Positions 11,465 to 51,703 of a stretch of DNA of 64,000 nt are shown one piece after another; position 1 is the first letter of the stretch, and the number at the start of each line of letters is the position of its first letter. The position numbers and the translations under genes are program-made. Location: the IMG/VR virus record IMGVR_UViG_2891407665_000020, one strand, 5' to 3'. This DNA is from an uncultured virus (IMG/VR IMGVR_UViG_2891407665_000020) (Duplodnaviria > Heunggongvirae > Uroviricota > Caudoviricetes). The notes under the pieces are model-generated. The model was not told the origin of the DNA. It ran no database searches and saw only the letters and a list, made by a program, of their open reading frames with translations.

Positions 11465-11474
11465 GATGTCGTAG

Positions 11475-11545
11475 TAAAGGATAATAAGAAATTATCTTTC
11501 AGTATTTGTTAGATTGGAGAATACTTAGATGATTAATTTATATGA
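11475..11545 (+). repeat. Left arm of 71-bp perfect inverted repeat (IR1-L)
   Basis: Exact reverse complement of 14988-15058; contains GGATAA-TAAGAAA-TTATCT, the RBS and the ATG (MINLYE). Confidence 0.95.
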
Positions 11546-15004: not shown

Positions 15005-15058
15005 CTAAGTATTCTCCAATCTAACAAATACTGAAAGATAATTTCTTATTATCCTTTA
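14988..15058 (-). repeat. Right arm of 71-bp inverted repeat (IR1-R)
   Basis: Exact reverse complement of 11475-11545. Confidence 0.95.
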
Positions 15059-15500: not shown

Positions 15501-15529
15501 TTGCCAACAAGCAGAATCTGTTGTATAAT
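15501..15529 (+). promoter_or_regulatory. sigmaA promoter P2, outside invertible cassette 2
   Basis: TTGCCA-17bp-TATAAT. Confidence 0.7.
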
Positions 15530-15537
15530 ATTGTCGA

Positions 15538-15566
15538 AGTAAAGGATAATTCGGAGTTATCCGTTG
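15538..15566 (+). repeat. Left arm of 29-bp perfect inverted repeat (IR2-L)
   Basis: AGTAAAGGATAATTCGGAGTTATCCGTTG, the reverse complement of 20293-20321. Confidence 0.92.
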
Positions 15567-15678
15567 GATATCGTGATTGGAATAAAATAAGAGATTATCC
15601 GTTGTAAATGATTGTACACTGCCTATCAACAAAATTCGGATTACACTTTGGGCATTTTATAATCTGCATGGGGGCAAG

Positions 15679-18600
15679 ATGAAAAAATTACGTTTAGAGT
15701 ATTGGGATTATTTTACAAAAAAGGGTAAGGGTGGAAAAACAAGGGGAGATGGAATAAAGTTTGAAGGATTGGTTAAATGTTTGTTGGCAGCTCAATATGG
15801 AATAGAGTGGATCGGTACTCAAAAAAGCTACGATGATAATAGGGATTTTTGGATTTATTTCAAGGAAAAACATCTCTGGGCAGAGTGTAAAAACTATAAA
15901 GATTCAATTGCTATGGATGTTTTGGCACCGACTTTAGTAATGGCTCATATATACGAAGTAAATGAAATTTTATTTTTCAGTCGTTCAAACATTAACCCAA
16001 ATGCTAAAAATAAAATTTTAGCATTTGGTGAAAAAAGCAATAAGACAATTTTATTTTTCGATGGTGTAAATTTAGAAAAACTACTATGGGATTACCAGAA
16101 TTGTATACCTAAAGAATACTCCCCATCGGATTTTTGGGAAGACGCGCAGCCAGATTCATTTGCAGAGCCTTTTGTGCACCTATACTTCTTTAAGAATGCT
16201 GTTTCCAATGTAAATGCTATAGCAGAGTCCTTTATAAGTTACACAAGCGCAGATACAATATACTATAATGAAACATTTGCATTGACCTTTTTCTTAACAA
16301 ATAATCTTTCGGAAGATGATGTTGAAATTGGAATTGAATTTATGGATGACGGGAACGACCGGTTTTCATTTCAATATTTTAACCCGACCATTGTCCCTGA
16401 AAAGTGCCAATGGTATCAAGCATCTTTAAAAAGAGGAGAAGGAAGAGCGATTTCGCTGAATATGCGTCAAGTACGATATAAAGCTCAGATTTGTTTACCA
16501 AAGTTTCACGTTTGGATTTCATCTGCTAAAAGTGATTTTTTTGCTGAGTGGAATTCAGCGGTCAAATCTGTAAAATGTAGTTGGGTAGGAAAAACGCAGC
16601 TTATTGGTTCAAACTATTTAGGCATTCTTGAAATAACAGAGGAGCAGCTTATCGGCAATCCTAACCTATCTAGTTTGATTCTCACCGGAAGTAGTGGAAC
16701 AGGGAAAACCCGTCTTTTAAGTGAATGTCGAAATGTTTTTTTGAAAAAAGGCTATTGTATTCTTGATTTTTCAGGACAGAAAGATTTTTCTTCTCGATAT
16801 TTCTTAAAAGAAATTGTTTCTTTCCTGTATGAAATTCCCAGTGATATGGTGTTGGAACTGCTTGAACAGCGCTTATTTACTGATTATTCCGAGGAAAGTT
16901 TTCCGAAAAATACGGAAGCAGAAAAGGCAGTTCGTCTTCTGGCTTTAATTATGAAAAGCTGTACAGAGGATTCCCTGCAAAACATGTTGAGTTCATACGG
17001 CAGCATATTATATAAAAAGTTGTCGCAGAATAAAAATGTGCTGGTTATAGATAATTTGCAGTATACCGGAAGCGCGTTCCGATACTTTATAGAACAATAT
17101 ATTTACTATGCAATTAATCAGCAATCTGTAAACCATTCTGTTCTGCTACTTGCTTTCAATATTGATTACATGACAACTGCCACTTCAGAAATGCTTTATA
17201 ATCTTCTGCATTCGGATATTCCACGCTTACTTTCGTATCAATTGACGGGTTTTTGCAAAAAAGAGCAGGGTATTGCATTTCTACAGGAATTGACTCGAAC
17301 AAAGAAGGATGAGAATATAGATTTCTTCTCTGAGATTATTATTAAAGTTTCTCTTAATCCATACAACCTGTTTCAGACAGTGAAATATCTGGAAGAGACA
17401 GATATTGTCCAGATTACACCAGAAAAAAACGGATATATTGCTCCTGGCCTAGAAAAATATAGGGTACTCTCTAATATTGATATTACAGATGTATTAGAAA
17501 AAAGATTTCAATTTATCAGTATTCAGATTCCGATGGAAAAGCTCTTATTTATTTGTTCAGTCATATATGTATTTGATTTTGTCGATTCCAAACTGCAGAG
17601 TATATTTCAAATTTCAACTGAAGAGTTGGATTGTCTCTGTAAAAAACACATTTTGCAGTTATCGCAACAAGGCATCTATCTTTTCGATCATGACGTTATT
17701 CGTAAATTTTTTTGTACAAAATATGCAGACAGTGTTCTTAACTGTTTAGAATGGATTCATAGGCAGAAAAGCATAGAAAAAATTCGTCGATATCGGATGG
17801 CTTGTTCTGTCTACGAGGTTGCAATTGAAAAAAACAAAGAAACAATTTTGCGCTTTTGCCGCAATCTTCCCACGCTATGTATACCCGAGAGGCTCGCCTC
17901 GCTGTTTTATAACCATTTGTTAGATGCATTTACGGAACTGATAGAAGATGGCAATTATGAAGGAATGTATTTAAAATATATTCATCAGATATGCATATAT
18001 GTGCGGCAATATGATGGCTCCCAAAAAGCATGGTTAGTAACAAAGCAAATGTTTGACACTATTCAAGCATACTGCCCCGACGCATTGTCAAAGGACACGG
18101 CATACTACCGCCCATTGATACATTTTTCCTGTGATATTGCTATTCAATTATATTTCTATGAGGAAGCAGTTCTTTTTATAAATGACGTTTTAAATGCTTG
18201 TAAAAATGCATGCCCAAACAATGTGGAAAATAGTGATGAATTATATGTTTTACAGGCAATTATGTACAATCGCTGGTATATTACATATAATACGCAAAGT
18301 TACAAAGAAGAAATTCAAGAATTACGCCGCTCTTTAATGGATAAATCACGGGCTTATATTGACAAAATCGTTGATACGGAAAAGAAAGGGCTTATAGAAT
18401 ATCTTAACTTTTCTGATGAAGGTTATAACTATTATGGTTATCTAAAAAACAAGAAAAAACTATTAAATATATGGGACAATTGTATCAAGGATATTCCCAA
18501 TATGGTTCCTGAAAAAACATTGAATTATTACAGAAAAACAGTTCAATATGCATTGATTCATCAAGATAAAAACGCTGTCAAAGACGAAACGCGAAAGGCA

Positions 18601-19089
18601 ATGCAGTATCTAGAAGAAGGCAAATATTCACATGAACCGATTATTTTTAAAACGTTTTTCCTTATGGCGGAAATAATGTCTAATCTTCAGCATTCGCCGG
18701 AAAGGACATACTTCTATAATGCTCGGCTTATTGATAATATTTTACAAACACAATTGCTTCTAAATAATCACAAGATAGGAGATATTCTCCTTTTAAAAGG
18801 CGTAAATGCATATTATGCCGGAAATATGGATGAAGTTTATTATTCGTTTAAAGAAGCTTATGAGCACTATTCAAACGGTGAAACTTCTCGTTACTGGATA
18901 AAAGAATCTTTATTAAAAGAAAACGTAAATTACACATTTACGGTTCTCGGAATTTATAACAAAGGGTATAATGTCTCCTGTTTCCCTGATACATGGCGCA
19001 AGCCACTAATGCTTTCTAATCGAAATAAGTTTGAAGCAAGCGGTATTCAGCGTACGGGGGATTTATGCCTGAATCTGCCATTAATATGA
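15679..19089 (+). CDS. Mrr-like PD-(D/E)xK endonuclease fused to a P-loop NTPase and helical C-terminus (Avs/STAND-like defence candidate)
   Basis: GIKFEGLV...DDNRDF...WAECKNY nuclease motif; Walker A GSSGTGKT; Walker B VLVIDNLQ; LFDHDVIR. Confidence 0.75.
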   Translation: MKKLRLEYWDYFTKKGKGGKTRGDGIKFEGLVKCLLAAQYGIEWIGTQKSYDDNRDFWIYFKEKHLWAECKNYKDSIAMDVLAPTLVMAHIYEVNEILFFSRSNINPNAKNKILAFGEKSNKTILFFDGVNLEKLLWDYQNCIPKEYSPSDFWEDAQPDSFAEPFVHLYFFKNAVSNVNAIAESFISYTSADTIYYNETFALTFFLTNNLSEDDVEIGIEFMDDGNDRFSFQYFNPTIVPEKCQWYQASLKRGEGRAISLNMRQVRYKAQICLPKFHVWISSAKSDFFAEWNSAVKSVKCSWVGKTQLIGSNYLGILEITEEQLIGNPNLSSLILTGSSGTGKTRLLSECRNVFLKKGYCILDFSGQKDFSSRYFLKEIVSFLYEIPSDMVLELLEQRLFTDYSEESFPKNTEAEKAVRLLALIMKSCTEDSLQNMLSSYGSILYKKLSQNKNVLVIDNLQYTGSAFRYFIEQYIYYAINQQSVNHSVLLLAFNIDYMTTATSEMLYNLLHSDIPRLLSYQLTGFCKKEQGIAFLQELTRTKKDENIDFFSEIIIKVSLNPYNLFQTVKYLEETDIVQITPEKNGYIAPGLEKYRVLSNIDITDVLEKRFQFISIQIPMEKLLFICSVIYVFDFVDSKLQSIFQISTEELDCLCKKHILQLSQQGIYLFDHDVIRKFFCTKYADSVLNCLEWIHRQKSIEKIRRYRMACSVYEVAIEKNKETILRFCRNLPTLCIPERLASLFYNHLLDAFTELIEDGNYEGMYLKYIHQICIYVRQYDGSQKAWLVTKQMFDTIQAYCPDALSKDTAYYRPLIHFSCDIAIQLYFYEEAVLFINDVLNACKNACPNNVENSDELYVLQAIMYNRWYITYNTQSYKEEIQELRRSLMDKSRAYIDKIVDTEKKGLIEYLNFSDEGYNYYGYLKNKKKLLNIWDNCIKDIPNMVPEKTLNYYRKTVQYALIHQDKNAVKDETRKAMQYLEEGKYSHEPIIFKTFFLMAEIMSNLQHSPERTYFYNARLIDNILQTQLLLNNHKIGDILLLKGVNAYYAGNMDEVYYSFKEAYEHYSNGETSRYWIKESLLKENVNYTFTVLGIYNKGYNVSCFPDTWRKPLMLSNRNKFEASGIQRTGDLCLNLPLI

Positions 19090-19091
19090 AA

Positions 19092-20210
19092 TCAGCATTT
19101 CCGGTCTGCAATGATAGAAAGCGGTAAAATATTCCCATGGCGGTCTACAACGATATCATCTTGAATATTGCGCATACGAAACCAGAGCTCATTGTCAAAA
19201 AGTCCTACAAAGGTATCGACAAAATAAAGAATCGGCGTTACCAAATCAATGAACTCAAATGATGAATCATTGTATAATACAATATGTTCATTGTCCCGAA
19301 TGGCATTCGGACGTTCTATAATGTCAAGGAATTGAATACCTAAGCATTTTTCTATCATTTGATAAAAGGACTTTCTGTCATAAAGAGTTGTAAGGTCTAA
19401 CATAAGATATTGGTGCACATTTAGTGGATACATTTTAAGGAAATAGTCTGCGCTGATTTTATACCATGCACTATTATCATACACTATTTTTGCATAATCC
19501 TTCATACCATACATTCCTTTTGCATCCAGCCTATAATAGCTGAAACGGGATTTAGAGTTATTTGGATCGGTTCCTCCTTTATGATATGCAGTTGCTCCTG
19601 CAGATACCCATGTTTCGTAACCGATGTCACGTAAACGAAAACAATAGTCACAATCTGTATAAGAATAAGGAATGTCTTCATCCATTCCGCCAATGCGATT
19701 ATATAAAGTCTTGGTAGTCATCATTATAGCGCTACATACCGTCTGCACACAGCGGTCATCTGCTGCTAACGGATGGTTGTATAATAATCCCATCATAGTA
19801 TGCGCTGCATTGAATTTTGAATACATAATTCCAAAATCTAGGATTCGATTATTAAGCGGATTTATCAATTTTGCGCCTGCAACTCCAATTTTATCCGAGC
19901 TCAAAAATGTTTTTAGAAGTGCTTCGTACCAGCCATCCCATACAAAAATGTCTGCGTCTACAAAAGTAATAATTTCTCCGGCACACATTTCTACGCTAAG
20001 ATTTAATGCTTTAGGATATTGAATATTTTGGTACACCTTATAGTAATTACACCGTGGATTTGAGATTTCCATATCTAAATCGCTGCTGTTAACATTATTG
20101 CCAATAATAAAAATCTCCACATCATCAGGAACCGTTTTTAAAATCCTGTTCAAGCAAAATATGAGCATATCCTTATTTTTATGATATGTAATTATAATTG
20201 ATTGTCGCAT
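19092..20210 (-). CDS. Glycosyltransferase family 2 protein
   Basis: SIIITYH..., ITFVDAD (DxD), IGGMDED...YTDCDYCFRL. Confidence 0.85.
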   Translation of the reverse strand: MRQSIIITYHKNKDMLIFCLNRILKTVPDDVEIFIIGNNVNSSDLDMEISNPRCNYYKVYQNIQYPKALNLSVEMCAGEIITFVDADIFVWDGWYEALLKTFLSSDKIGVAGAKLINPLNNRILDFGIMYSKFNAAHTMMGLLYNHPLAADDRCVQTVCSAIMMTTKTLYNRIGGMDEDIPYSYTDCDYCFRLRDIGYETWVSAGATAYHKGGTDPNNSKSRFSYYRLDAKGMYGMKDYAKIVYDNSAWYKISADYFLKMYPLNVHQYLMLDLTTLYDRKSFYQMIEKCLGIQFLDIIERPNAIRDNEHIVLYNDSSFEFIDLVTPILYFVDTFVGLFDNELWFRMRNIQDDIVVDRHGNILPLSIIADRKC

Positions 20211-36524: not shown

Positions 36525-37385
36525 ATGCGTTATCGAATGCCAAGAGTAGCAGCTACGGGTGTTGTGGTGTGTATTGGCGCCGCTAGTTTCCTTGATTCTG
36601 GGGATACGTGTAGCTTGCTGCAGAATAAATTTAATGTTTATGCTGATAAAGCTTCTGTGGCAGAGCAGACGGTGGACCGTTTTGTAAAGGACGTAGCGAT
36701 ACGCGACATGCGGATTGAAGCAGAACTGCAGGGAATCAGGGAGCAAAAGAAAAAGGAGCAGGATTCAGCGGAGAGCAAGGAAAGGAAGCTTAAGGAGATA
36801 AGGAAGAAGCAGAGGAAAGCTTTAGACTCCAACGGTTACTATAAAAAGTATAAACAGAAGAAAAAGGCAAATGCCGATACTGTGGGATGGCTTAGCATCA
36901 GCAATACGAGTATTGATTACCCTGTTATGTATGCAGAAAACGACTTCTATCTAAACCATAATTCTGATAAAGAAGAGGACAGTAATGGCGCCATCTACCT
37001 TAGCGGCAATCAGGGTAACTGGGGCAAGGTCAATTTAGTGAACGGGCATAATATGAAATCAGGCAAGATGTTTGGACCGCTGGATAAGTTTAAGGATGAG
37101 GATTATTGTACGGCTCACAGGGATGTTGTGCTTGCGCGCAAAGGCGAGGTAGGGCTGTATAGGGTATTCTCAGTTTTCCTGGCAGATGCGCGGAACGAGC
37201 CAGTATCTTTTAGCGAAGAAAAGGAAGGACAGAAGTACCAGGATTTTTTAAGGACTCTTAGCAACCGGTCGCTCTTTAACCTTGATTATGATGCTGAGGC
37301 TGATGATATTATTATTTTGAACACATGCTCTTATGAGTATTCGGAAGCGCACCTGCTAGTCTGCGCTTATAAATTAAGTGAATAG
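36525..37385 (+). CDS. srtB: Class B sortase
   Basis: GWLSISNTSIDYPVM, NDFYLNH, GHNMKSGKMFG, LNTC catalytic motif. Confidence 0.85.
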   Translation: MRYRMPRVAATGVVVCIGAASFLDSGDTCSLLQNKFNVYADKASVAEQTVDRFVKDVAIRDMRIEAELQGIREQKKKEQDSAESKERKLKEIRKKQRKALDSNGYYKKYKQKKKANADTVGWLSISNTSIDYPVMYAENDFYLNHNSDKEEDSNGAIYLSGNQGNWGKVNLVNGHNMKSGKMFGPLDKFKDEDYCTAHRDVVLARKGEVGLYRVFSVFLADARNEPVSFSEEKEGQKYQDFLRTLSNRSLFNLDYDAEADDIIILNTCSYEYSEAHLLVCAYKLSE

Positions 37386-38622
37386 GAGTAAATTTATGAC
37401 ACTAGAAGATATGAGGGCATCTGATAGGTATGCCGACCTTTTTATACTCGCCAGATACTTTTACCGTATTGGCGAGCCAATTATGGATGATTATGAATAC
37501 GAAGAGTTATTGCTTAATGTAAGGAAGTGCTGCAGCCAGCAGATATCTGATTATCTGGACAGGACTTATGATGATGACCCGATACCATTAAAGCTGCTGA
37601 ATGAGATTGGCGTGGAGCCGATAAGCATTAAGCACGATGACAGCCGGGAAAGGCTGTTCCAGTATTTAAACTCAGAGAAGTCACTAAGCATCGATTCAGT
37701 AACTTCTTATGGGGAGGCTTATACTTTCTTTAGCAAGTACCGGGAAGAGAAGAAAGACCTGATGGTTTCTCTGAAGATGGATGGGGATAATGTGAAAACT
37801 TTATACCTGGACGGGAATCTTGAGCTTTCACTTTCACGCGGGCGTAATGCGGGAATTTCCTTTGACTTTACGGATACGGTTAAACGTGTGTTCCCCAATA
37901 GCATCATGAGCGTACCGCATGAATTGCGCATCTATGCAGAAGCATACGTGGAAGAGGATTACTTGGAGACTCTCCGTAGAAAATACAACCCCAATGGGTA
38001 TAAAACTTGCAAATCTGCAGCTATCTCCCTGCTGAGGGTACAGCATTCCAAGGAGGACTATGAGCATCTGCGTATCATAGTACATGGAATAGACGGCCTT
38101 GGAAGCAGTGTTTCTGAGGATTTCCAGGAAGCCGAGCAGAAAGGATTTAGCGTAGTCGAGCATAAACTTGTGCCATGGGAGGATATTCCAGTGGATAAAA
38201 CACAGTTCCGGGAATGGCTGAAGCGGGAGGTCTTTGATTATTTTGAGCAAAAGACAGATGGCGTCCCAAGTGATGGGATTGTTGTCGAAGTAAATGATAA
38301 AACTTATACAGGGATAACCGCAGGGCAGTATTCGAGCAGGCAGTTAGCTTTAAAGTTTGAACAATGGGCCTTTAAGGTGTACAAGGGGATTATAGAGGAT
38401 ATTATCTGGGAGCAGAAACGAGTTTTAGCATCCTGCCGTATACGGATAAAACCGATGCGTACCGATGACGGGTGCTCAGCAAACTGGATTAATGCATTCA
38501 ATTTTTCAATTGTTGTCAATGAAGGACTGGATAAAGGGAGTGAAGTGTACTATGTAAGGAACAGCGGCGCGGTGAATGTTCTAGTGTATGGGGTGGAATT
38601 GGACAGACTGCTTGGGAGGTGA
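37378..38622 (+). CDS. ligA: NAD-dependent DNA ligase, N-terminal half (domain Ia, adenylation domain, OB fold)
   Basis: YFYRIGEPIMDDYEYEEL (Ia), SLKMDG (motif I), SRG, YAEAY (III), DGIVVEV (IV), LALKF (V); no zinc finger, HhH or BRCT. Confidence 0.8.
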   Translation: MNRSKFMTLEDMRASDRYADLFILARYFYRIGEPIMDDYEYEELLLNVRKCCSQQISDYLDRTYDDDPIPLKLLNEIGVEPISIKHDDSRERLFQYLNSEKSLSIDSVTSYGEAYTFFSKYREEKKDLMVSLKMDGDNVKTLYLDGNLELSLSRGRNAGISFDFTDTVKRVFPNSIMSVPHELRIYAEAYVEEDYLETLRRKYNPNGYKTCKSAAISLLRVQHSKEDYEHLRIIVHGIDGLGSSVSEDFQEAEQKGFSVVEHKLVPWEDIPVDKTQFREWLKREVFDYFEQKTDGVPSDGIVVEVNDKTYTGITAGQYSSRQLALKFEQWAFKVYKGIIEDIIWEQKRVLASCRIRIKPMRTDDGCSANWINAFNFSIVVNEGLDKGSEVYYVRNSGAVNVLVYGVELDRLLGR

Positions 38623-39740: not shown

Positions 39741-39909
39741 ACGTGAAATCCCAATCACCCAGATTGACGAGGTTGAGAGCATTCAGATATTTAGCACGTT
39801 GACAAGGGAAGGTGATAGAGAGCACGGTATGGGTGATAGCCATGGAGACTGTGCAGAGATTGGTACTATGAATTTGTTCGGGGGTGGTGATAATGACCGT
39901 GTTACTTAA
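39709..39909 (+). CDS. Small hypothetical protein
   Basis: Fills the gap between genes, start uncertain. Confidence 0.45.
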   Translation: MGMLRVRRKDKREIPITQIDEVESIQIFSTLTREGDREHGMGDSHGDCAEIGTMNLFGGGDNDRVT

Positions 39910-40165
39910 TAGTAATGGCGCTACATACAGGGTAGAGGGAGAGCCTGATATTTATGTTAAGGATACTGATTTCCAGCGCATAGTAAACTCCCCGGCCGTT
40001 GTGCGTTGTATTCTGGAGAGGCTGGGGAAGCCAGCTGTCATCATCGAGAATTTAGGAAACGAAGTAGCAAACGGTGTTTATGATAATTACATTCCTATGG
40101 AAAACGAGGAGTTGGCGATGGAATATGGTGAAAATAGGGGGCTTGGTTTTTATGCAAAAATTTGA
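39884..40165 (+). CDS. Small hypothetical protein
   Basis: 93-aa ORF overlapping its neighbours. Confidence 0.55.
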   Translation: MVIMTVLLNSNGATYRVEGEPDIYVKDTDFQRIVNSPAVVRCILERLGKPAVIIENLGNEVANGVYDNYIPMENEELAMEYGENRGLGFYAKI

Positions 40166-40400
40166 TGATCTGGCTAGTGTATTTCAGAACACCACCCAGC
40201 AGAAGCCTGATGAGCAGTTAATACTGCTATGCCGTGTAGGTAAGATGTATGAACTTCCAATCGAGAAAGTAGCAGCTGCCTATAAGTGGATGCTTCTTCA
40301 TGGGGATTATGGGGAGGATTACAGGTTACTGCGAAGTGGCATGTCAGACCTCTATGGCGCTGATTTTATAGAGAGGATGGAGGAGAAATATGGGAAGTGA
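40152..40400 (+). CDS. Small hypothetical protein upstream of the RNA polymerase gene
   Basis: MQKFDDLASVF..., AGGGG RBS, overlaps the RNAP start. Confidence 0.55.
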   Translation: MQKFDDLASVFQNTTQQKPDEQLILLCRVGKMYELPIEKVAAAYKWMLLHGDYGEDYRLLRSGMSDLYGADFIERMEEKYGK

Positions 40401-43400
40401 TATTATGGCGAACAGGCAGAAGAGCCTATTTAACAATATGATTACCCAGCAGCTTCCACAATTGCTAAGTGACTATTCCGGCACAGATTTAGGGGACTTC
40501 CGCATTGATTTTGAGATGTTCCCTTTTTCGTCACGTGACGCCATTGAGAAAAATGGCACATTATGCGCTACAGTGAGGGCTGCTTGTACCGTTACCAGAA
40601 AAGCAACAGGAGAGAGTCATTGCTTCAATATTGATTTGTTGGATGTTCCTGTCTACACGGAAGCAGGCTTTAAGATTAAGAATAATTATATGCAGATTCT
40701 GGATTTATACAGCCGTACTACTGGTTGGAGTTTTTCCAGTGATTATTCTGATGGCGTGAATGATGATAAAAAGCAAGATTTTGATAAGCGGACAGCATCT
40801 TTAGTTGCTGTGGGAAAATCCTCAATAAAATTTTGTTATCAGAAGACCGGTGGTATTATCGTAAGGGTTAAGAACAAAGCTGTGCCTGTCAAGACATTCT
40901 TTAGGGCGCTATCGAATGTGTCCGGGGATGAACTTATTGAAATGTTTGGAATTGAGAATCCATTTATTGTGGATGCTTTATTATCCAGCAAGTCTAGTAC
41001 TGGGAGGATTGCGGATAACCACAGCCGGACTGAATGTATTGATTTTGTGTATAATATACTGCGCGGTGACTCGAAGCAGTCTGATGTTATAAAGAATACT
41101 TCTGTAAAACAGCAGGCGATTCAGGATGTATACTTTAACCAAAAGTATTTAAACCTCGGTAGAAATTACAGTGACAGGTTACAGCGTTCCATGTCTTTCC
41201 TGCTGAATGCTGAGGGGAAAGAGCTGGCAGAGGACGTCGTTTTAGAAGGGAGTGTCCTGCTTCCGCAAGGAACGATTCTGTCAAGCGATAAGCTGGTTGA
41301 ACTGGATAACCGTCCTATAAATCAGATAGCGGTTAAATCCAAAGGAAAGATCTTTTATTTAAGGAAATTTTCAAGCTTCACATTCCGTGTGCTTGGTTAC
41401 TCACTTTCAGAAGAATACTGCGGAATCCAGCCTGGAAAGAAATTAACACTATCAGATTTGGTAATACTGAACCAGTCCGAGTTAGACACCGTGAAGGTGC
41501 TGGATGGCTCAGGCAATACCAGGATAGTTAGGCGGCGTGTGCGGCCCAGGGTACTGGCAATGGAGGATCTGTATACAGTATTTAACCTTTATGCCAACCT
41601 CCTGAATGGGTATGACGTTTATGATAATCCCTATGAATTGACGAATAGGGTAGTGACCCCATTTAATAAAAAGATAGTCGAGATAATTGAGCGCAATTTG
41701 ATTAAGTATATTGGCCTCCTGGATAGGAACCTGAAGAAACTTAGTGAAGACGAATTTCTTTATGCGAAGATTGCAAAGACAACCTTCCAGCTCGATGAAT
41801 TTATTAAAGAAGCTGCGAACCCTGAAGATTCTGAAGCACAAATGTCGGACCTTAATAATGGGCTGCATTATATTAGCAAATGCTATAAGGTGACTACGGA
41901 TGTGAGGTCATCTGAGGCGACAGAGAAACTGCGCAGGGTGCAGGACTTGCAGCTTGGCAGGACGGATTCCATTGATTCACCGGAATCCAATAAGATTGGT
42001 TTAGTGCACCAGAGAACCCTTTTAGCAAAGGAGACTGATGAGGGCTATTTAACCGTGCCATACCTCCGCGTGAAGGATGGCATCGTTATGGATAAGCAGC
42101 CAGTTTATTTAAGCGCCCAGGAGGAAATTGGGAATTATATTGCTGAATGGGATGAAGAGTTTTTCCAGGAGGATGAATCTGGTTCACGTGTGCTAAAGCC
42201 ACGCATTAAAGCAAGGTATAATGGGAGCGTTGTTACCATAGAGACAAAGCGAGTGACATTAAAGGAGTACACGCAGATACAGAATATGTCGCCTGCACGT
42301 TCAACGATTCCATTTATGGGGAACTCTAATGCAAAAAGGCTTCTAATGGCCTGTAACCACCAAAAGCAGGCGGTTCCTGTAATTAAAGCACAAAGGCCAG
42401 TTGTCGGCACTGGGTGCGAGGCGATGTTGCCACTTGGGAATTACAGAGCAACCAGCGTGCTGCAAGATTATTATGAATCTACTGCCAGCATTTACCCAGG
42501 AATAAAGGAGTATAAGGATGTTATTCTTAATGGCAGTCTGTCCATAGATAAGGATGGGATACAGGAGCAGGAGAAAACCCGGCATGTAAAATTGATTGTG
42601 AACGAAGCAAAACAACTGGCACAGAATGGGAAGATTCAGTGTGATTACACGACTACAATCAGTATCCCATTCATGCAGAAAACCTCTGAAAAATCAGTAT
42701 TCTCCTTTAGGATACATCCTGCAAAAGACGGAGTGTACCGTGGGGATGCTATAATTGCTTCTGATATTTCTTTCTACCCTTTAGCGGACAGGAAAGTGAA
42801 TACAGTTGGGGACTATGGCGGTCTGGAGATGGATAAGGGCAGCGCAGAGCAGTCATACGGCCCAGGCGTCAATCTCGTAGTTGGGTATAAGACATACGAA
42901 ACGTCTACCATAGATGATGCTATCTGCATTTCCTCAAAGCTGGTATACGACGAGACATTGACTTCAATCACCATGGTGTCTAAGACCGTTGAGCTAAGAC
43001 AGCGTTCAGATAAGACTGAATCTTTTGGACTGCCGAGGGAACACGATTTTAAGAAATATAAACTGGATTACAGGGGTCTGGCCGCAGTAGGTGCAATGTT
43101 GAACCCGGGTGACGCCTATGCCTGCGTCATCGTAAGTTCCAGCGACAAGGTAACGGTCCAGTATAAGTTCCTGGATGAATACTCCTGTGGGCAGGTTATA
43201 TCGTCAGATATAAAGACGAAGGACAATAAGGTTTATGCAGAAATCATTATCGCCGCCAGGAGTGATATTGAGTGCGGTGACAAGATGTCCGGAAGGTGTG
43301 GTAATAAGGGTGTGGTAAGTAAAATTATACCTGAAGAAGAAATGCCTTATGACCCGGAAACCGGTCTTACGCTGGATGTAATCCTCAATCCGCTTGGAAT

Positions 43401-46400
43401 ACCTTCACGTATGAATATTACGCAGCTACTGGATTGTGCGTTAGCGCTTGCCATGAACCGGCAGAATGAGTATGTAAATATCGCTCCATACTATAAAGGC
43501 AGTATTGATTATGTGCGGGAGCAGACGGACAGGCAAGGTGTTAAGCCAATGATGCTTTGCGATGGCAGGACGGGAGAATTTTTTAAGCGGCCCGTGAATG
43601 TCGGCGTGCATTATATGTTTAAGCTGGTCCATATGGTGAAGAAGAAGGTTAATGCCATTTCACTTGAAGAGCCAATCGACCCTATTTTCCAGCAGCCTTT
43701 GAAAGGGCAGAAAAATGAGGGCGGGCAGTCGTTCGGTGAGATGGAGTCCTGGTGTCTGCAGGGAATCGGGGCAACAGGCGTATTGCAGACTACGTACAGC
43801 ACAGAGTCGGATGATATAGATAAGAAGCTTGAGCTGGAAGAGAGGCTATGTAACGGTGAGCTGGACGTAGATGTTATAGGGGAGAACAAGAACGATTTAG
43901 TCATGCAGACCTTCACAAGGTGTTTAGGCATTGATGTTGATTTAAGGGACGGCCTTTACACATTGAGGCCGCTCAGCGATACTAAGATACGCTCGCTTAA
44001 TGTGTACTCTGTTAATGACGAGAACGACTTACACAATCCTGCGATATTCGGCAGTGATGCGACCCCCAGGGACAAGATGGATGGGAAAGAAAAATGGAGT
44101 TATATTGATTTGCATACAGAAATCGTGTCTCCATTTTGGTTTAATAAGGGCATCCTGAACCGGTTAATAGCAGTGCGTGTCGTTACCTGCGCCAGTGATG
44201 GAAGCCATAAAATTTCCGCACCTACGATTGCACAAAGCGGCTTATTCTATTCACTCCTTCGGGGAGAAACGTTTGTAGGAAAGACGATAAGCGCCTGTGG
44301 GTATCCGACTATTTATAAGCCTGGCATCCCCGATATGCCATTGGATGTTATAACAGGGAACGAGGCGGTTATTTATGTTTTTAAGAACTATGACTTTAAT
44401 TCAACAGTCTCTGTGTATGAGGCGGAGATAGCGAAGAAGAAGAGCAGTATAACACCGGAAGAACAGGCAAGCAATAAAGAACTGCTTCGTATGCTAAAGT
44501 CTTATAACAGTTTAAAAAATAATATTGATGCCGGCATTGTCCCATCAGATTATGTAATCAGCGCTCTGCCTGTTATGCCACAGACATTTAGGCCTTTGAT
44601 GAAAGGCGGGGCACAGAGCAGGACGTCTGATTTTGACAAGTCGTATAAACAGATTTTAGCGGACGTGCGCAGTATCACGCAGGGTGTTACAGAAGCGAAT
44701 ACACTGGCGCTTTTACAGGATATAGAGCAGTTCCTTGGTTTCGAGAAACTTGCAAAACGCAATATTTCTTCAGACAAGGACAGGACAAACCTGATACGCT
44801 GGTTCACCGGGAGCGGGGACGAGAGTAATTCAAAGCACCATGGGAAAATCAGGGAAAACACATTAAGCAAGAAGATGTTCTGTTCTGGACGGTCTGTTAT
44901 TATTCCAACAGGGCTTCCTGATATGAAGCCTACTGAGGTAGGTATCCCGCTGTCCATGCTGGTCAAGTTATATAAACAGCCTTTAATTGGATATTTGTGT
45001 GAAGCATTCAGTATGCAGAAACATGGGAAGTTTATTTCGAAGAATGTGTGGCGCGCTTTATTCAATGCTGTAGGCGGAAGGCAGCCACAGAAGTTTATGG
45101 AGGTGTGGGATTCAAAGTTTGCAAGTAAAGCAATAGACCCATACAGTGAAACGAAAGAGAATTTGAAAGCAAGGGAAGCATATGACCTGGTAAGGAAATT
45201 GGTCATTCAGTATGTTGAAGAGGAAGGCGTTGTCGAGCTTGGCAGGCAGCCATCCCTGCACCAATTTAGCATAAAGGCATACCGCGTCAAAGCTGTCGAC
45301 ACTAAAGCCATACAGATTCATCCGCTTGTGTGTGGCGGATACAACGCTGATTTCGATGGCGATACTGTTTGGGTAAAAGCAATCCTTTCTGCGACTGCGA
45401 AAAAAGAAGCGCTGGAGAAGATGTCACCGGCGTCCGTGTTCAGGAACCCAAAGGATAGTTCCCTTGTATTAATGCCGGCACAGGATATTGCGCTTGGGTT
45501 GTATTGCGCGACAATGCTAAAGAATAATGTGTCAGATGTTTATGAGACGCCTGAGGTGCTTGGCGATATAAGGTATTACTCGGATACAGAGTCGCTGGCA
45601 AGCGATATAGACCTGGGGATTGCTGAATACTACACGCTCGTTGTTATCAGCCAGAACGGCAATTATTATTATGCAACTGCCGGCAGAATCTTATTTAATA
45701 GCTTAATCCCAGGCGGGTTCACCGACAGGCCATTTAGCAACGTCCTGCATCTCCCTATCCCGTGCAATGCAGCATTCAGGGATACGCATAACTTATGCGA
45801 CTTGGAATATGACGGCATCATTGCCGGCAAGGGAGGAACACGCAAGGATGTTGTATACTGCAAGCTGAGTAAGATATGTGAAAAGTTCGTAACCGAGCGC
45901 CCGGAGGATTGTATAGACATATACCAGGCTATTACAAAGTTTGGCTTCCACGCGAGCGACCTTAATTCTGTGACTCTCTCATTAGACGATATTAACGTCA
46001 GCATTATCCCAGATGAGTTACAACAGAGGGGGCAGCGTAAAAAAGACCTCCTCGCTGAAGAAAGAGATAAGGGCATTCTCAGCGAGAGCGAATACTTTAG
46101 GCTAAGCAAAGAGTTAAATTCCAATCTGGAAGAAGCGCTTGCCGGGGATATTAATGCTGCCAGTTGTAACGATTTGAAACATTCCTTGCTTGCGGATGCG
46201 GACAGGAAAAAAGAGCAGTTGGAAAATGCCTACCAGTTGGGGATAGTGCATGAGGAGGATAGGAAGAAGGGAATACAGAATCTGTATAAGGGAACCCTTG
46301 GAAAGATAAAAAGCGCACTCCCTGCTTCTATGGATAGGAATAATAATTTGTTCATTATCTATGACTCTGGGGCACGCGGGAATATAGGGCAGATTATGCA

Positions 46401-48648
46401 GACTACCGGCGCCATAGGAATCCTTCAGAAGACAAAATCTGAGAACATGGAAATGCCAGTCACCGGAAATTATGCAGAGGGAATAAGTTCCTTTGACACT
46501 TATATTACATCTTTCTCTGCACGTACCGGCGTCGCATCCACGCAGAATGAAACGCAGAATGCCGGGCATGCAACCAGGACGGCTGTTTATATGCTGGATG
46601 GTATTGATGTTGTAGAGGACGACTGCGGGAAGAAGAATTGGTGGTACGACGTACAATGGGGAGATTTTAAGAATGTTGTAAGGCTGAGGCCGTCAGATGC
46701 ATTTATAGAGCGGCATTTGGGCGGGAAGAGACTGGATTTCTCTGACAGGGAAACCTTTAAAGAATTCAGTGAGATTACCCCGGACGGCGAGATTACTGAC
46801 AATGTGCTTCAGTATTTAAGGCAAAAAGGGTTCTCCACATTAGTGCTAGCAGGACCGGATAAAGAACGGCATTATGTTGATATTTCCATTGATAGCATGA
46901 AAGGCGCGAAGGTAAGCGAGGATGACGAGGACAGCTTACGGGCGTTAAAAAACTACCTGAAAGGGAGAAAGATTACGAATGAGTGCCTTGGGATTATTGT
47001 GGCAGAAAAATTAAAACGTGTGCAAACCAATGATGGCGTGTATGAGCTGTATTACAGTCTTAACCCGGTAGTTGAAAGTCTGTTGCTAGGCAGGGAAGCA
47101 TCTGCCACGGAATTGGATGGACTCCCTGGTTTGCCATACCTCGAAGAGGTAGCTGACTGTAATGACCAATCAGGGAAAACGATAACGTGCATTACCCGCA
47201 AGACCCTTGATTATGTGGAGGAGAACAGGCTCGAGAGGATTCCGGCAAGGCTCTTATTAGACTGCCACTCGGTAGGGGGTGTGTGCGCACATTGTTATGG
47301 GCGAAGGTACACAGATGGGACAATCCCCAAAGTAGGTTCAAATGTTGGCATTGAAGCGGCGCAGTCACTTGGGGAGCCAAGTGCACAGCTTACCATGTCA
47401 CTGTTCCATACAGGTGGCGCTGCAGGAACCAGCATTGCCGGTGGCGTAGAAATACTTTCGCATCTGCTGAGTGGCTCAAAGCCTGGTGGTTCTAATTCAG
47501 AGACTGCCACGGTAGCCCCGCATAATGGGTACGTAAAGCTGATCAAGCTTGACTCTAAGGATATTGGCTTTGTTATTCCGGAGAAGCAGGACTGTACGAT
47601 GTGCGCTAAATGCCGCACAGAGAATGCAGGGTGCCCAATTGATAGCGGGCTTTATGGAAATGCCGCATGTAAGCTGCAACAGAAGTTAGACAGCACAACA
47701 ATCATAGTGAAAGACGGCCAATACGTAAAGCATGGGGAGTCTATCACAGATGGCTATGTAATGCCAAATTCAATAGTAAGGTGCCAGGGGTATTCGGATG
47801 AGGAAGTTTTGCGGAAAAAGCAGATTGTGTGGATGATGGCATACTTCGATACATTCCGCAGCAATGGGATTGATATTAATGCCCGGCACTTTGAGATCTT
47901 GGCGAGGTGCCAGAATTTGCTGGTTACTATCGTTGACAAAGGCAACACGAATTTAGAGGTCGGGAAGACTTACGAGTTCTCTGAGCTTATGCGCAATTAC
48001 CTGCCGGAGGATTTAGCAAGTACGCAGTATTATATGGCGACTTCTGATAAGTATGAGGTCGTCACACATTTCAGCGGTCCTATGGCAATGCTTACATTTG
48101 AGAATGTGGCAGAGCAGGCCGCCGTATTTGCGAATAGCGTATACAGCTCATCCACAACGTCGTTAATTGGCAGTTCCTTTGTTGGGAATAATTTGATTCT
48201 GGATGAGAAGAAAACACTAAAACAGCCAGTCATTGTGAACCGGGCGTTTGAGGATAATCCTTTCTTTGATTCCGATGAGGATTTCAACCAGGAGAGTGAG
48301 GCTATCGAAGTGGTGCATGGGCTTGAGGACACAAGTCTGGATTTAGGGGAATTAGACTTTACTGGGCTTGATACAATGCTGGATGACAGTAATGCCTTTG
48401 GTACTAGCGCCACCGATGAGGAGCCGGGCGCGGCTGACAATCTTGACAGCGATACGCAGGAGCCCTGCCTGGACACAGCGGATGCCGTGGATGCAGCTAA
48501 GGATACTATTGATGATATGGGTGTTGTGGAGGATGTGGATACATTCGGGGGTGTGGATCTGATCGACAGTCTCTTTACAGATTCAGACTCCGCGGATGCG
48601 CCGCATGATGAGGATGATGTACAGCTTGAAGATCTTTCATTCTTTTAA
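40390..48648 (+). CDS. rpoBC: Divergent DNA-directed RNA polymerase, fused beta-beta' subunits
   Basis: beta motifs RLLMACNHQKQAVP, GDKMSGRCGNKGVVS, NPLGIPSRMN, GGQSFGEME; beta' motifs RQPSLH, YNADFDGD, SGARG, VCAHCYG, AAQSLGEPSAQLTMSLFHTGG; one frame, no stop; acidic tail. Confidence 0.95.
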   Translation: MGSDIMANRQKSLFNNMITQQLPQLLSDYSGTDLGDFRIDFEMFPFSSRDAIEKNGTLCATVRAACTVTRKATGESHCFNIDLLDVPVYTEAGFKIKNNYMQILDLYSRTTGWSFSSDYSDGVNDDKKQDFDKRTASLVAVGKSSIKFCYQKTGGIIVRVKNKAVPVKTFFRALSNVSGDELIEMFGIENPFIVDALLSSKSSTGRIADNHSRTECIDFVYNILRGDSKQSDVIKNTSVKQQAIQDVYFNQKYLNLGRNYSDRLQRSMSFLLNAEGKELAEDVVLEGSVLLPQGTILSSDKLVELDNRPINQIAVKSKGKIFYLRKFSSFTFRVLGYSLSEEYCGIQPGKKLTLSDLVILNQSELDTVKVLDGSGNTRIVRRRVRPRVLAMEDLYTVFNLYANLLNGYDVYDNPYELTNRVVTPFNKKIVEIIERNLIKYIGLLDRNLKKLSEDEFLYAKIAKTTFQLDEFIKEAANPEDSEAQMSDLNNGLHYISKCYKVTTDVRSSEATEKLRRVQDLQLGRTDSIDSPESNKIGLVHQRTLLAKETDEGYLTVPYLRVKDGIVMDKQPVYLSAQEEIGNYIAEWDEEFFQEDESGSRVLKPRIKARYNGSVVTIETKRVTLKEYTQIQNMSPARSTIPFMGNSNAKRLLMACNHQKQAVPVIKAQRPVVGTGCEAMLPLGNYRATSVLQDYYESTASIYPGIKEYKDVILNGSLSIDKDGIQEQEKTRHVKLIVNEAKQLAQNGKIQCDYTTTISIPFMQKTSEKSVFSFRIHPAKDGVYRGDAIIASDISFYPLADRKVNTVGDYGGLEMDKGSAEQSYGPGVNLVVGYKTYETSTIDDAICISSKLVYDETLTSITMVSKTVELRQRSDKTESFGLPREHDFKKYKLDYRGLAAVGAMLNPGDAYACVIVSSSDKVTVQYKFLDEYSCGQVISSDIKTKDNKVYAEIIIAARSDIECGDKMSGRCGNKGVVSKIIPEEEMPYDPETGLTLDVILNPLGIPSRMNITQLLDCALALAMNRQNEYVNIAPYYKGSIDYVREQTDRQGVKPMMLCDGRTGEFFKRPVNVGVHYMFKLVHMVKKKVNAISLEEPIDPIFQQPLKGQKNEGGQSFGEMESWCLQGIGATGVLQTTYSTESDDIDKKLELEERLCNGELDVDVIGENKNDLVMQTFTRCLGIDVDLRDGLYTLRPLSDTKIRSLNVYSVNDENDLHNPAIFGSDATPRDKMDGKEKWSYIDLHTEIVSPFWFNKGILNRLIAVRVVTCASDGSHKISAPTIAQSGLFYSLLRGETFVGKTISACGYPTIYKPGIPDMPLDVITGNEAVIYVFKNYDFNSTVSVYEAEIAKKKSSITPEEQASNKELLRMLKSYNSLKNNIDAGIVPSDYVISALPVMPQTFRPLMKGGAQSRTSDFDKSYKQILADVRSITQGVTEANTLALLQDIEQFLGFEKLAKRNISSDKDRTNLIRWFTGSGDESNSKHHGKIRENTLSKKMFCSGRSVIIPTGLPDMKPTEVGIPLSMLVKLYKQPLIGYLCEAFSMQKHGKFISKNVWRALFNAVGGRQPQKFMEVWDSKFASKAIDPYSETKENLKAREAYDLVRKLVIQYVEEEGVVELGRQPSLHQFSIKAYRVKAVDTKAIQIHPLVCGGYNADFDGDTVWVKAILSATAKKEALEKMSPASVFRNPKDSSLVLMPAQDIALGLYCATMLKNNVSDVYETPEVLGDIRYYSDTESLASDIDLGIAEYYTLVVISQNGNYYYATAGRILFNSLIPGGFTDRPFSNVLHLPIPCNAAFRDTHNLCDLEYDGIIAGKGGTRKDVVYCKLSKICEKFVTERPEDCIDIYQAITKFGFHASDLNSVTLSLDDINVSIIPDELQQRGQRKKDLLAEERDKGILSESEYFRLSKELNSNLEEALAGDINAASCNDLKHSLLADADRKKEQLENAYQLGIVHEEDRKKGIQNLYKGTLGKIKSALPASMDRNNNLFIIYDSGARGNIGQIMQTTGAIGILQKTKSENMEMPVTGNYAEGISSFDTYITSFSARTGVASTQNETQNAGHATRTAVYMLDGIDVVEDDCGKKNWWYDVQWGDFKNVVRLRPSDAFIERHLGGKRLDFSDRETFKEFSEITPDGEITDNVLQYLRQKGFSTLVLAGPDKERHYVDISIDSMKGAKVSEDDEDSLRALKNYLKGRKITNECLGIIVAEKLKRVQTNDGVYELYYSLNPVVESLLLGREASATELDGLPGLPYLEEVADCNDQSGKTITCITRKTLDYVEENRLERIPARLLLDCHSVGGVCAHCYGRRYTDGTIPKVGSNVGIEAAQSLGEPSAQLTMSLFHTGGAAGTSIAGGVEILSHLLSGSKPGGSNSETATVAPHNGYVKLIKLDSKDIGFVIPEKQDCTMCAKCRTENAGCPIDSGLYGNAACKLQQKLDSTTIIVKDGQYVKHGESITDGYVMPNSIVRCQGYSDEEVLRKKQIVWMMAYFDTFRSNGIDINARHFEILARCQNLLVTIVDKGNTNLEVGKTYEFSELMRNYLPEDLASTQYYMATSDKYEVVTHFSGPMAMLTFENVAEQAAVFANSVYSSSTTSLIGSSFVGNNLILDEKKTLKQPVIVNRAFEDNPFFDSDEDFNQESEAIEVVHGLEDTSLDLGELDFTGLDTMLDDSNAFGTSATDEEPGAADNLDSDTQEPCLDTADAVDAAKDTIDDMGVVEDVDTFGGVDLIDSLFTDSDSADAPHDEDDVQLEDLSFF

Positions 48649-48676: not shown

Positions 48677-51600
48677 ATGCCCCTTTCGAGCGGAAAGACA
48701 ATTAGCAGACTGGAGGTTGCTATGCTACTAAGTGAGTTAAGAAAAGACACATTGCCTATAGGGAAAGTGCAATTTGTTCTCGCAATCATTATAGGTGATA
48801 AAGCTGGCGCAGCGTTAGAGGGAGAGGCATTAAAGATTAGTACTTCTACGCTGAGATACTATGTTGAAGAGAAACAGAAGCAGACCAAGGGGAATGTTGA
48901 TATTGTGCGGACCGTGATTGAATGCGTGGCTACACAGCCAGTCATCAGCCAGGGCAGGAGGCAGTGTAATATTTACGAGTATGGCAGGTACGGCAATACT
49001 CGCAGCTCTTTGTGTATATCAGAAGAGGAACTGTATAAGGCGGTAATGCGTGTACTCCGTGATTACAGTAATGAGCGCTGCCTGTCTTTGTTTGCGGATT
49101 CACCTTATGCAAAGGAGAAAGTGCTGAAAGCCATAAAAAACAATTACGTGGCATTCACAGGGGACGTCAACCCTACCCCCGCCAAATTGAATGCAATCTT
49201 CAACGATCTGAAGGATAAGCAGATTAACAGGTATAGCAGCGACTACGTGTTTTCCTCTAACCATGATAATCCGGTAGGGTGGCTGATTAAGGCGCTGGAG
49301 TTCTTTAGCAAGAACAGGACATTTTACACAAACAGGGCAAACGAGAGAAATCAGGACCAGATTATTGGGAGCGATAGGGGATCTACCCAGATGGAACTGG
49401 TCGCTATGGAGAATAGGAAAGAAAAGATTAATATTGATTTCCCGTCTGTTGTAAGTGATATTGCCCTTGCCTCTCAGCTACTTTATGTCCATAAAAACAA
49501 TACAGAGGCTTACTCCGATATTTATACGCATTATGTCAATAAAAAAGCCAATGAGGTGCGCGAGGCCATCTTCCGCAGCCTGGGGACCAAGGCATCCCTT
49601 TATAGTATAGTGAACAGATGGGATCCTGTAATAGTCGGCGCAAGCCATGTCAATAACAAAAAGAACAGCAGGGATAATATTGCAAAGGTAATGGAGATGC
49701 TTGTGGACAACCCAATTGCGGTGTCTGAGGTCTCTAAACTTTATAAGAAAGTATTACAGGTTAATGAGAATATACACCTGAACAGAGAGGGTACCATTAA
49801 GGATGGGATGCGCCTGTTCGACTCCAAGGATGTGAGCGTGCGTTCGAAGATGAGGAACGGTGAACGGTTTGAGATTCTTTACAAGGGCTATGTTGCGCTG
49901 GCGAATTTCATCAGATACCTTAATTCAAGGGATATATCGCTGTTTAGCATTCCGACAGAGATCTTTAGGAATATAAAACTTCCCAGACGCTTTTATTCAT
50001 TGGATGAGTATTTAAAGCTTGGAAGTACAGTAGCCCAGCTAGTGCAAGACGTGGACAGGGATGCTGAACGATCCAAACAGGTTGTAAACGGGATGTGGAA
50101 TAATGATGCTTTGTTTGATTCGATATCCTTACAGCTTTCAGGTGAAGCCGCGACTATACAGAACTTCCTAAGAAATTCCTGCACACTTGGGGATATTAAA
50201 ACGGCAATCGATAATGTGGAGCGTCGAAAGAAATGTGCGGCTTTCGACCAGCAGGCTTTTGTGCTGTACGAGAAGTATAAGCCTGAAATGTCCTATTTTA
50301 TGATAGGTGTTATTGGGGATAAGGCTGCTGGTAAGCGGTCAGTGACTCTCCTCGACAGGCAGGAGGAAATGGACGCATTTAAACAGCGGTCAGATTCAAT
50401 ACAGAAGTCCCACGGTGATGCATACAGGATTTATAAATTCCCGTTTTATCCTGGGGCTGAGGATTATGTCAGTTACACTGACCCATTTAGCGTAGGCCTG
50501 GACAGCGCGGAAGCAAGGAAAGATTTTATAGGTAAGTACCGGAACTGCCTTAATTGGGTAGAAGCTTCAATCATAAACACAGGGACGTTTGAGCAGCAGA
50601 GTTTGGGAACCCTGCGTGGGCTTCATTTTTATTTTATGCTAGCAATTTATAACTTTGACTCTTACAAGAATCTCACAGAGAATAAAGAGCGTGTAAGGAT
50701 GAAGTTAAGCAGATGTTACGTGCACTTGCTAGAAGCGTTAATGGAGAAAGAAGGGCATCCGGTTAAGAGGAACCATCTTTATGCCATACGGGGCAGGAGC
50801 ATAGCCGACCAGTTCTCGTATTTATTGGAAGGGTGCGACACTGAGGAGAAAGAAAAGTCTGCACTCCGGGAGATTAAGTACCGGGAGTTTGCAATTTCTT
50901 TCTGTGCAGATGCATTGCTTGCCCACCCGGCAAGGAACGACTGGGAGAAATTAAGGGATTTGTTTATCTCAGTTTCGGTTTATGAGAAGCTGTGGCTGAA
51001 TTTGCTGAATGCACTAGTTACCATTTGTAATGCAAAGAGAGAGTTTCTTACAGATGCAGAATTGGATAAAAAACTCCACAGCATGAATGAATACCGCAAA
51101 TTTATGAATGACGGGGCATTTGGGGCATTAGTGCGTTCTACAGCATTCTCTAACCTGTACAAGTTGAATAAACCTATTATGTCTATTAACGATATTCCAT
51201 TCCTATGGGAGATAGATACATACAGTGTCGTAGAGAATGACGCTTTCTATGCAAATGCAGGGAAGCATGGGAATACCGTGATTGTGGATACTGTCAATAA
51301 GTTCATAAACAGATACCCAGATATTTTTGAGTACTTCCGTATACTCGATGAGCAAATAAGCATACAGATAAGGCCAGGGCTTGAGCACGCAGCCTTTAAT
51401 GCAGGTACTGACGCGGAGTGTGGGGTACTCGAGGAAGCTGCACGCTCTTTACGTGAAACTAAGGATTTCATTAAAAGATTCGGAAACAGCCTCACTGGAA
51501 AGATTAGCGCGATGCTGCACACAGCTGTGTGCGATAAGGATGGATACCTTATGCTATTCAATAAGAGGTATTCCGTGGACACAGCCGATAGCCTGAACTA

Positions 51601-51703
51601 TGTCCATAATTCAGGTTTCTGGGTTCGCGTGAAAGGAAACAAATTTTCTTTGACGCCTATAGGGAAAATTGATTATGACCATTTGAAAGGGATACTAAAA
51701 TAA
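48677..51703 (+). CDS. Large hypothetical protein directly downstream of the RNAP gene
   Basis: 1008-aa ORF, no motif recognised. Confidence 0.75.
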   Translation: MPLSSGKTISRLEVAMLLSELRKDTLPIGKVQFVLAIIIGDKAGAALEGEALKISTSTLRYYVEEKQKQTKGNVDIVRTVIECVATQPVISQGRRQCNIYEYGRYGNTRSSLCISEEELYKAVMRVLRDYSNERCLSLFADSPYAKEKVLKAIKNNYVAFTGDVNPTPAKLNAIFNDLKDKQINRYSSDYVFSSNHDNPVGWLIKALEFFSKNRTFYTNRANERNQDQIIGSDRGSTQMELVAMENRKEKINIDFPSVVSDIALASQLLYVHKNNTEAYSDIYTHYVNKKANEVREAIFRSLGTKASLYSIVNRWDPVIVGASHVNNKKNSRDNIAKVMEMLVDNPIAVSEVSKLYKKVLQVNENIHLNREGTIKDGMRLFDSKDVSVRSKMRNGERFEILYKGYVALANFIRYLNSRDISLFSIPTEIFRNIKLPRRFYSLDEYLKLGSTVAQLVQDVDRDAERSKQVVNGMWNNDALFDSISLQLSGEAATIQNFLRNSCTLGDIKTAIDNVERRKKCAAFDQQAFVLYEKYKPEMSYFMIGVIGDKAAGKRSVTLLDRQEEMDAFKQRSDSIQKSHGDAYRIYKFPFYPGAEDYVSYTDPFSVGLDSAEARKDFIGKYRNCLNWVEASIINTGTFEQQSLGTLRGLHFYFMLAIYNFDSYKNLTENKERVRMKLSRCYVHLLEALMEKEGHPVKRNHLYAIRGRSIADQFSYLLEGCDTEEKEKSALREIKYREFAISFCADALLAHPARNDWEKLRDLFISVSVYEKLWLNLLNALVTICNAKREFLTDAELDKKLHSMNEYRKFMNDGAFGALVRSTAFSNLYKLNKPIMSINDIPFLWEIDTYSVVENDAFYANAGKHGNTVIVDTVNKFINRYPDIFEYFRILDEQISIQIRPGLEHAAFNAGTDAECGVLEEAARSLRETKDFIKRFGNSLTGKISAMLHTAVCDKDGYLMLFNKRYSVDTADSLNYVHNSGFWVRVKGNKFSLTPIGKIDYDHLKGILK

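Follow-up and report, generated by a model that had tools for sequence, protein, structure and literature searches.

To our knowledge, all characterised bacterial RNA polymerases require the flap tip and the clamp helices to hold sigma. Sigma region 4 sits on the flap-tip helix, near the zinc domain, and the zipper contacts spacer DNA. Single-chain beta-beta' enzymes occur as the fused RpoBC proteins of Helicobacter and Wolbachia, but these are housekeeping polymerases that use sigma-70. Sigma region 2 binds the clamp helices, according to the available text of PMC7618050. The polymerases of phiKZ and AR9, as described in the available portions of two reports, use for initiation a fifth subunit that is unrecognisable by sequence (PMC7598289, PMC7618050), and the AR9 enzyme has no zinc domain (PMC7618050). 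Here we describe a fused beta-beta' polymerase, P0001, encoded in a 64,000-nucleotide stretch of DNA (the window) of IMG/VR record IMGVR_UViG_2891407665_000020, catalogued as an uncultured virus. The polymerase-bearing element is a giant mobile element of Clostridia, and the sigma-docking face of its polymerase, as judged by alignment, is remodelled family-wide.

P0001 resembles bacterial core polymerase (RpoB/RpoC; best PDB matches 7l7b, 8i23 and 6wvj) in its domain order, NADFDGD motif, both catalytic lysines, lid and rudder, and also has the second zinc site and the alpha-contact region. It differs in being about 30% identical, fused, borne by a mobile element and placed in a clade of its own outside the cellular clade; it has no flap-tip helix, zipper or N-terminal zinc domain, its clamp hairpin is shorter, its dock is larger, and fork loop 2 and the rifampicin pocket are altered. 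With the non-virion polymerases of AR9 and phiKZ (gp226/gp68) it shares, as far as the available text on these goes, the character of an element-encoded two-barrel enzyme, and with AR9 also the missing zinc domain. In the same sources, AR9 and phiKZ both have promoters of their own and an initiation subunit that does not resemble sigma in sequence; for P0001 these two features are proposed here. The two phage enzymes come from jumbo phages, are split over four chains and have no alpha, whereas P0001 is a single chain, accompanied by an alpha-like gene, on an element without a capsid or portal match. Divergent mobile homologues of beta and beta' are also found among Caudovirales (PMC7481178, available text) and among virus-record polymerases (L014, L095-L174). 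No published description of the element family or its polymerase was found in a full-text literature search, most subscription journals being outside its range.

Catalytic core and sigma-docking surfaces

The beta domains of P0001 come first and are followed by the beta' domains, all within the single open reading frame (ORF) at 40390-48648 on the plus strand, in which all the peptides quoted in an initial annotation of this DNA could be located. Residues N1652, A1653, D1654, D1656, G1657, D1658, K965 and K973 are invariant in 56 of 56 aligned family members, as are all four cysteines of the second zinc site. By its NADFDGD motif and beta catalytic lysines, both read from the sequence, P0001 is predicted to be a two-barrel multisubunit RNA polymerase. 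The curated RpoB cut-off was missed, the best piece reaching 195.6 bits against the 801 of TIGR02013.

To compare the sigma-contact sites, residues were counted from anchor to anchor in P0001 and in 119 of its top-ranking homologues (465 were found in all), rows with unmatched anchors being dropped. The references were RpoB and RpoC from annotated records of Escherichia coli, Bacillus subtilis, Agathobacter and Monoglobus; the deletions rest on these alignments, without a structure model of the polymerase. The initial annotation had claimed that the flap-tip helix, the four-cysteine beta' zinc-binding domain and the clamp helices were lost. The first two losses are borne out. Between the flap anchors there are 27 residues compared with 46, and the shortening is family-wide (25–40, median 28, in the 115 of 120 members with matched anchors). 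The zinc-binding domain is replaced by 21 residues, compared with 45, that contain no cysteine; the site has no cysteine in 112 of 118 anchored members and at most two in the others, as opposed to four in 4/4 references. The clamp helices, on the other hand, are shortened and diverged but not lost, since both are retained. The coiled coil counts 31 residues instead of 39, and exactly 31 in 93 of 111 anchored members; Y1419 occurs in 119 of 120, I1422 in 110, I1445 in 100 and G1450 in 118. The core of this hairpin is conserved in the family while its surface is variable, the same surface being nearly invariant among the four references.

Two changes go beyond the initial annotation. The beta' zipper is deleted, its span being 12–16 residues in 118 of 120 members (the reference value of 25 was counted on the E. 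coli row), and the beta' dock is enlarged in 120/120, with spans of 59–120. Predicted as it is from alignment, the enlarged dock is a candidate replacement surface for docking or for DNA binding. With three sigma-contact parts lost and a fourth reshaped, P0001 is likely unable to form an ordinary holoenzyme with host SigA.

The control with cellular and virus-record sequences covers the flap only. The flap span is 46 in all 28 cellular sequences (the 4 references plus 24 bacterial loci, sampled as every third of 72). It is 38–103 in 67 distinct virus-record sequences, two of them of cellular type, that represent 76 loci; in the 30 family members analysed beside them it is 27–38. Among the virus-record polymerases the span is at least 42 in 66/67, many have a visible helix, and none falls inside the clade of the element polymerases. 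Full flap-tip loss was found in none of the 28 cellular and 67 virus-record control sequences. The short spans of the family, in the pattern given above for the several sites, were also present in 46/46 polymerase ORFs from genome and metagenome loci. In a midpoint-rooted tree, uninformative on the donor, the 30 family members group together with a support of 0.79, separately from the cellular sequences, whose clade has a support of 0.996. In 25 of the 67 virus-record beta subunits, including L098, L100-L102, L108, L114 and L115, the flap-tip region is about twice the normal length (97–103 residues).

Sequence identity is 31–75% among the best 120 homologues apart from the own record. A scan with a family-specific motif identified five GTDB genomes (the source genome included) and 44 metagenome loci, and among 401 host-family genomes G001 alone matched at E 1e-40. 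The motif had no match in viral_contigs, and homologue searches of plasmid and phage collections gave canonical or unrelated phage polymerases only. Profile-driven locus scans gave generic RpoC matches, which were reused as controls.

Other parts of the polymerase have changed as well. In the rifampicin pocket (window 41839-41895, residues 484-502), at the positions aligned with H526, R529 and S531 of E. coli, lysine is found in 48/56 and 53/56 members and threonine in 40/56, respectively; fork loop 2 is shortened and D446 is replaced. The polymerase is therefore likely to be rifampicin-insensitive, as far as sequence can tell, and such insensitivity would help to tell its transcripts from those of the host. 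An insertion in the beta' jaw (window about 47560-47690, residues 2392-2432) has at least four cysteines in 34/56 members and none in 21; in some members it may possibly form a novel zinc site. Further large insertions are present in both beta and beta'. The C-terminal tail (window 48240-48648), of about 130 residues, is very acidic and poorly conserved in sequence.

Table 1. Positions of the polymerase, its structural elements and other genes of the element (window coordinates unless a record or locus is named).
Feature	Position	Strand	Remarks
Fused beta-beta' RNA polymerase P0001, 2752 aa, single ORF	40390..48648	+	Pfam Rpb2 and Rpb1 domains; PDB matches to bacterial beta/beta'
Beta flap, tip helix deleted	43108..43191	+	G907-G934, 27 aa vs 46; alignment
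Deleted beta' zipper site	43990..44031	+	R1201-L1214, 13 aa vs 25; alignment
Cys-free loop replacing beta' zinc-binding domain	44047..44112	+	F1220-L1241, 21 aa vs 45; alignment
Lid, kept	44590..44631	+	13 aa vs 14; alignment
Clamp coiled coil, kept, tip 8 aa shorter	44629..44724	+	D1414-I1445, 31 vs 39; alignment
Rudder, kept	44737..44844	+	variable length, 23-38 aa in family; alignment
Beta' dock, enlarged	44983..45243	+	86 aa vs 43; alignment
Catalytic NADFDGD motif, intact	45343..45363	+	alignment
1008-aa protein, mostly helical	48677..51703	+	directly downstream of polymerase gene here and in relatives; candidate partner
458-aa protein, alpha operon	G000 101585-102961 (L003:9585-10961)		133 relatives
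Alpha-like gene, 212 aa	G000 104640-105278		NCBIfam RpoA E 2.5e-4, N-terminal domain, weak match
202-aa sigma-70 protein, ordinary-looking, inside element	G001:C1 163916-164524; L186:1156-1764	- on L186	regions 2 and 4
NAD-dependent ligase, 414 aa only	37378-38622		present and conserved in each of the four relatives
Small conserved ORF, 93 aa, 5' of polymerase gene	39884..40165	+	14 relatives; candidate accessory subunit
Small conserved ORF, about 85-108 aa, overlaps polymerase start	40074..40400	+	20 relatives; candidate accessory subunit
Tubulin/FtsZ-like gene, far end of element	L187:8777-9892	-	named by eye; orthologue in G404
Recombinase-like gene, far end of element	L188:14087-15769	-	named by eye

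Promoter-like motifs and candidate initiation factors

We consider it moderately probable that transcription by this polymerase begins at promoters peculiar to the element and relies on a factor which the element itself encodes and which has diverged beyond recognition as a sigma. This reading is favoured by the deletions at four separate sigma-contact sites throughout the family, none of the control sequences showing complete loss of the flap tip; by the invariant catalytic and Mg-binding residues (56/56) together with alpha-like and GreA-like genes on the element; by a closed circular relative that has the same deletions, a private motif and no recognisable sigma; and by the lack of clear enrichment of SigA-like sites, along with the precedent of phiKZ and AR9. 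In such a scheme the fused polymerase would assemble on the element's own tail-less alpha, and a partner protein would bind the shortened clamp hairpin for melting and use the enlarged dock, rather than a flap tip, to place an upstream-reading domain. Transcription of the element would then be insulated both against competition by host sigmas and against host factors acting on those surfaces. The alpha-like protein has a PDB match at E 0.074 and none to PF01193, and collinear orthologues of its gene are found in G402, G404 and G405, three of the four relatives (G402, G403, G404 and G405) that are collinear with the element. The GreA-like gene has a Pfam match at E 1.6e-13.

The circular relative, contig G402:C57 (L245-L254), is a closed 188-kb circle with a 127-base end overlap from an isolate genome of Clostridium paraputrificum, and its polymerase (L193) carries the same deletions. 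On this circle a motif could be identified, ACCCtA-N18-TTATAwAT-AwgTG, composed of two boxes at a fixed spacing of 18 bases, the downstream one TATA-like. AACCC-N20-TTATA ranks first among the gapped word pairs on this contig, with 8 occurrences where 0.19 would be expected, and the motif was recovered by expectation maximisation (EM) with a score of 131.7 versus 68.6 for shuffled sequence. Sites lie ahead of about 15 operons, many of them 20–50 bases before the start codon. Sigma70_r2 had no match on this contig, the best E value with a host-sigma profile being 0.11. As no recognisable sigma is present on the circle, something else reads the motif, the simplest reader being the element polymerase together with a factor of its own; an alternative reader is the host polymerase, steered by a diverged factor from the element.

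Two proteins were folded as possible partners of the polymerase. The 458-residue protein is a candidate; its gene lies directly upstream of the 5'-3' exonuclease gene in the own record (G000), G402, G404 and G405, and its model has a predicted local distance difference test score (pLDDT) of 93.8. By eye it resembled sigma regions 1.2, 2.4 and 4, but it was rejected as a recognisable sigma, as hhalign gave probabilities of 0.1% and 0.4% (the latter with a 115-sequence profile) compared with 96% and 72% in the positive control. No sigma was found in a PDB profile search or among the best 25 of 72 Pfam families. The model had no Foldseek match at E 0.001 in PDB or BFVD, the best sigma row having E 0.33 and a template modelling (TM) score of 0.13, and in VIA it matched generic helical bundles only (best Z 6.9), with the N-terminal half barely covered. 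Its sigma-2-like part is largely absent from short orthologues, including the 309-residue form of G402. The 1008-residue protein, of which the position and the N-terminal half are conserved, was modelled from 25 sequences with a pLDDT of 71.9 and a predicted TM score of 0.47, and had no match in Pfam, PHROG, PDB-profile, Atlas or Foldseek searches. Neither of the two models showed a gp226/gp68-like fold. Finally, 75 ORFs of the element were compared by hhalign with host sigma regions 2 and 4, the large annotated genes and the last ORFs being left out; the best probability was 2.2%, with most profiles built from 1–6 sequences.

The scarcity of sigma-like proteins would also suit an enzyme in which recognition and opening of the promoter fall to the enlarged dock and the other insertions peculiar to the family. 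The dock is enlarged in every member counted, further large insertions exist in both subunits, and nothing sigma-like emerged from the 75 ORFs or the two folded candidates. We nevertheless regard factor-free initiation as unlikely, because the motif of the circle has two boxes, a fixed spacing and a TATA-like box, as in promoters read by sigma, the core of the clamp hairpin is conserved, and many conserved genes of unknown function remain as possible factors.

A partner of another kind could be the element's 202-residue sigma-70 protein, which would attach to the shortened clamp helices chiefly by its region 2. It is encoded about 50 bases beyond the end of G000, inside the element, and matches host sigmas at E 3e-15; G404 contains an orthologue of it in collinear position (E 1e-9). 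It was not found, however, on the closed G402 circle or the 229-kb element contig of G403, both of which bear the remodelled polymerase. Since its region 4 is normal while the polymerase lacks the corresponding docking helix, the protein more likely serves the host polymerase, and its role as the partner of P0001 appears rather improbable.

Several observations weigh against an element-encoded factor with promoters of its own. An ordinary-looking sigma is present in the own element and in G404, and no non-canonical factor could be found in the own element by profile comparison of ORFs or by folding of the two candidates. The G402 pattern has 16 matches in the 3.5-Mb genome; 15 lie on the circle, each on the coding strand, and the reversed pattern used as a control has 1 match. 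Both pattern and matrix were built from the sites they count, however, which makes the count on the circle circular; this does not apply to the strand bias or to the rarity of the pattern in the rest of the genome. The pattern has no match in the own element, G403, G404 or G405. De novo searches of the own element gave no convincing motif (EM scores of 60.6–63.7 versus 56.8 shuffled, 24 regions); a k-mer search found nothing convincing and gapped pairs were coding repeats only. The -10-like half alone shows no strand bias there (7 vs 6), and -10-like boxes at orthologous places exceeded the threshold in 2 of 24 regions versus 0.2 shuffled, which is suggestive only. EM scores of G403 and G404 above those of shuffled sequence were due to low-information, T/A-rich patterns, and CGCCAT in G403 was rejected as a promoter motif as its position is not fixed. 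Also, the clamp helices remain, by alignment. The roles given above to flap tip, zipper and zinc domain are general background, and the same surfaces serve elongation factors too. Thus, of the initial annotation's proposal of a non-canonical factor and own promoters, the promoters gained sequence support through the private motif of one relative, while neither motif nor factor was found in the element itself.

SigA-like sites upstream of element genes are not clearly enriched (own element 2/27 regions vs 0.9 shuffled; G402 10/63 vs 10.3), but the test is weak, as the host control gave only 6/24 vs 2.9 and G405 gave 4/14 vs 1.7, and this weakness counts on the opposing side. Host SigA might still act through region 2 alone at extended -10 promoters, the deletions then mainly dropping contacts with NusA/NusG, termination and ribosome coupling. 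Flap tip and zinc domain do take part in elongation control, the clamp helices and lid are kept, the downstream box of G402 resembles TATAAT, and weaker termination would suit long single-strand operons (107 of 114 ORFs of G000 share one strand). We judge this very unlikely, however, as the surface residues of the hairpin are unconserved in the family though nearly invariant in the four references, the upstream box does not resemble TTGACA, and a single match to the pattern lies elsewhere in the 3.5-Mb genome.

Gene content and setting of the element

The 145.8-kb IMG/VR 'provirus' record G000 carries genes for two PolA-family proteins, DnaB, DnaG-type primase domains, FtsK, a secretion ATPase, a sortase, adhesins, Hsp70 and GreA. 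Pfam scans of 98 of its ORFs and a PHROG scan of 50 yielded no capsid or portal match, and one weak terminase match (E 0.0035) on a P-loop protein. DNA of the element was also found within a 310-kb Lachnospiraceae contig, in which the element runs on past the end of G000 to the recombinase-like gene and is followed by ordinary chromosome genes. A low-GC island (window 10410-20210) holds a tyrosine recombinase, two NTPase genes and, on the reverse strand, two enzyme genes.

The ligase and PolA genes adjoin the polymerase gene. This setting, together with the loss of initiation-specific parts, could point to an enzyme that does not initiate at promoters and makes primers or long RNA of untemplated start for replication or transfer of the element. 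Such a role seems highly improbable to us, as the element has DnaG-type primase domains and DnaB of its own and keeps alpha and GreA, and the G402 motif lies 20–50 bases ahead of many start codons.

Significance of the polymerase family

In a wider and more doubtful reading, put forward only tentatively, widespread giant non-phage elements of gut Clostridia may run a complete private transcription system, consisting of a single-chain polymerase closed to sigma-70, a tail-less alpha, GreA and an initiation factor of a new class, which would bind the enlarged dock instead of a flap tip and so read a two-part promoter. A polymerase and promoter insulated in this way could also be put to use for orthogonal gene expression in gut anaerobes. 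With one member on a closed plasmid-like circle in a cultured C. paraputrificum isolate, and with a predicted promoter, the question is directly testable. A natural family of hundreds that has kept the catalytic core and dropped the docking parts is a test of which surfaces initiation truly needs, and shows a way to study how a sigma can be replaced.

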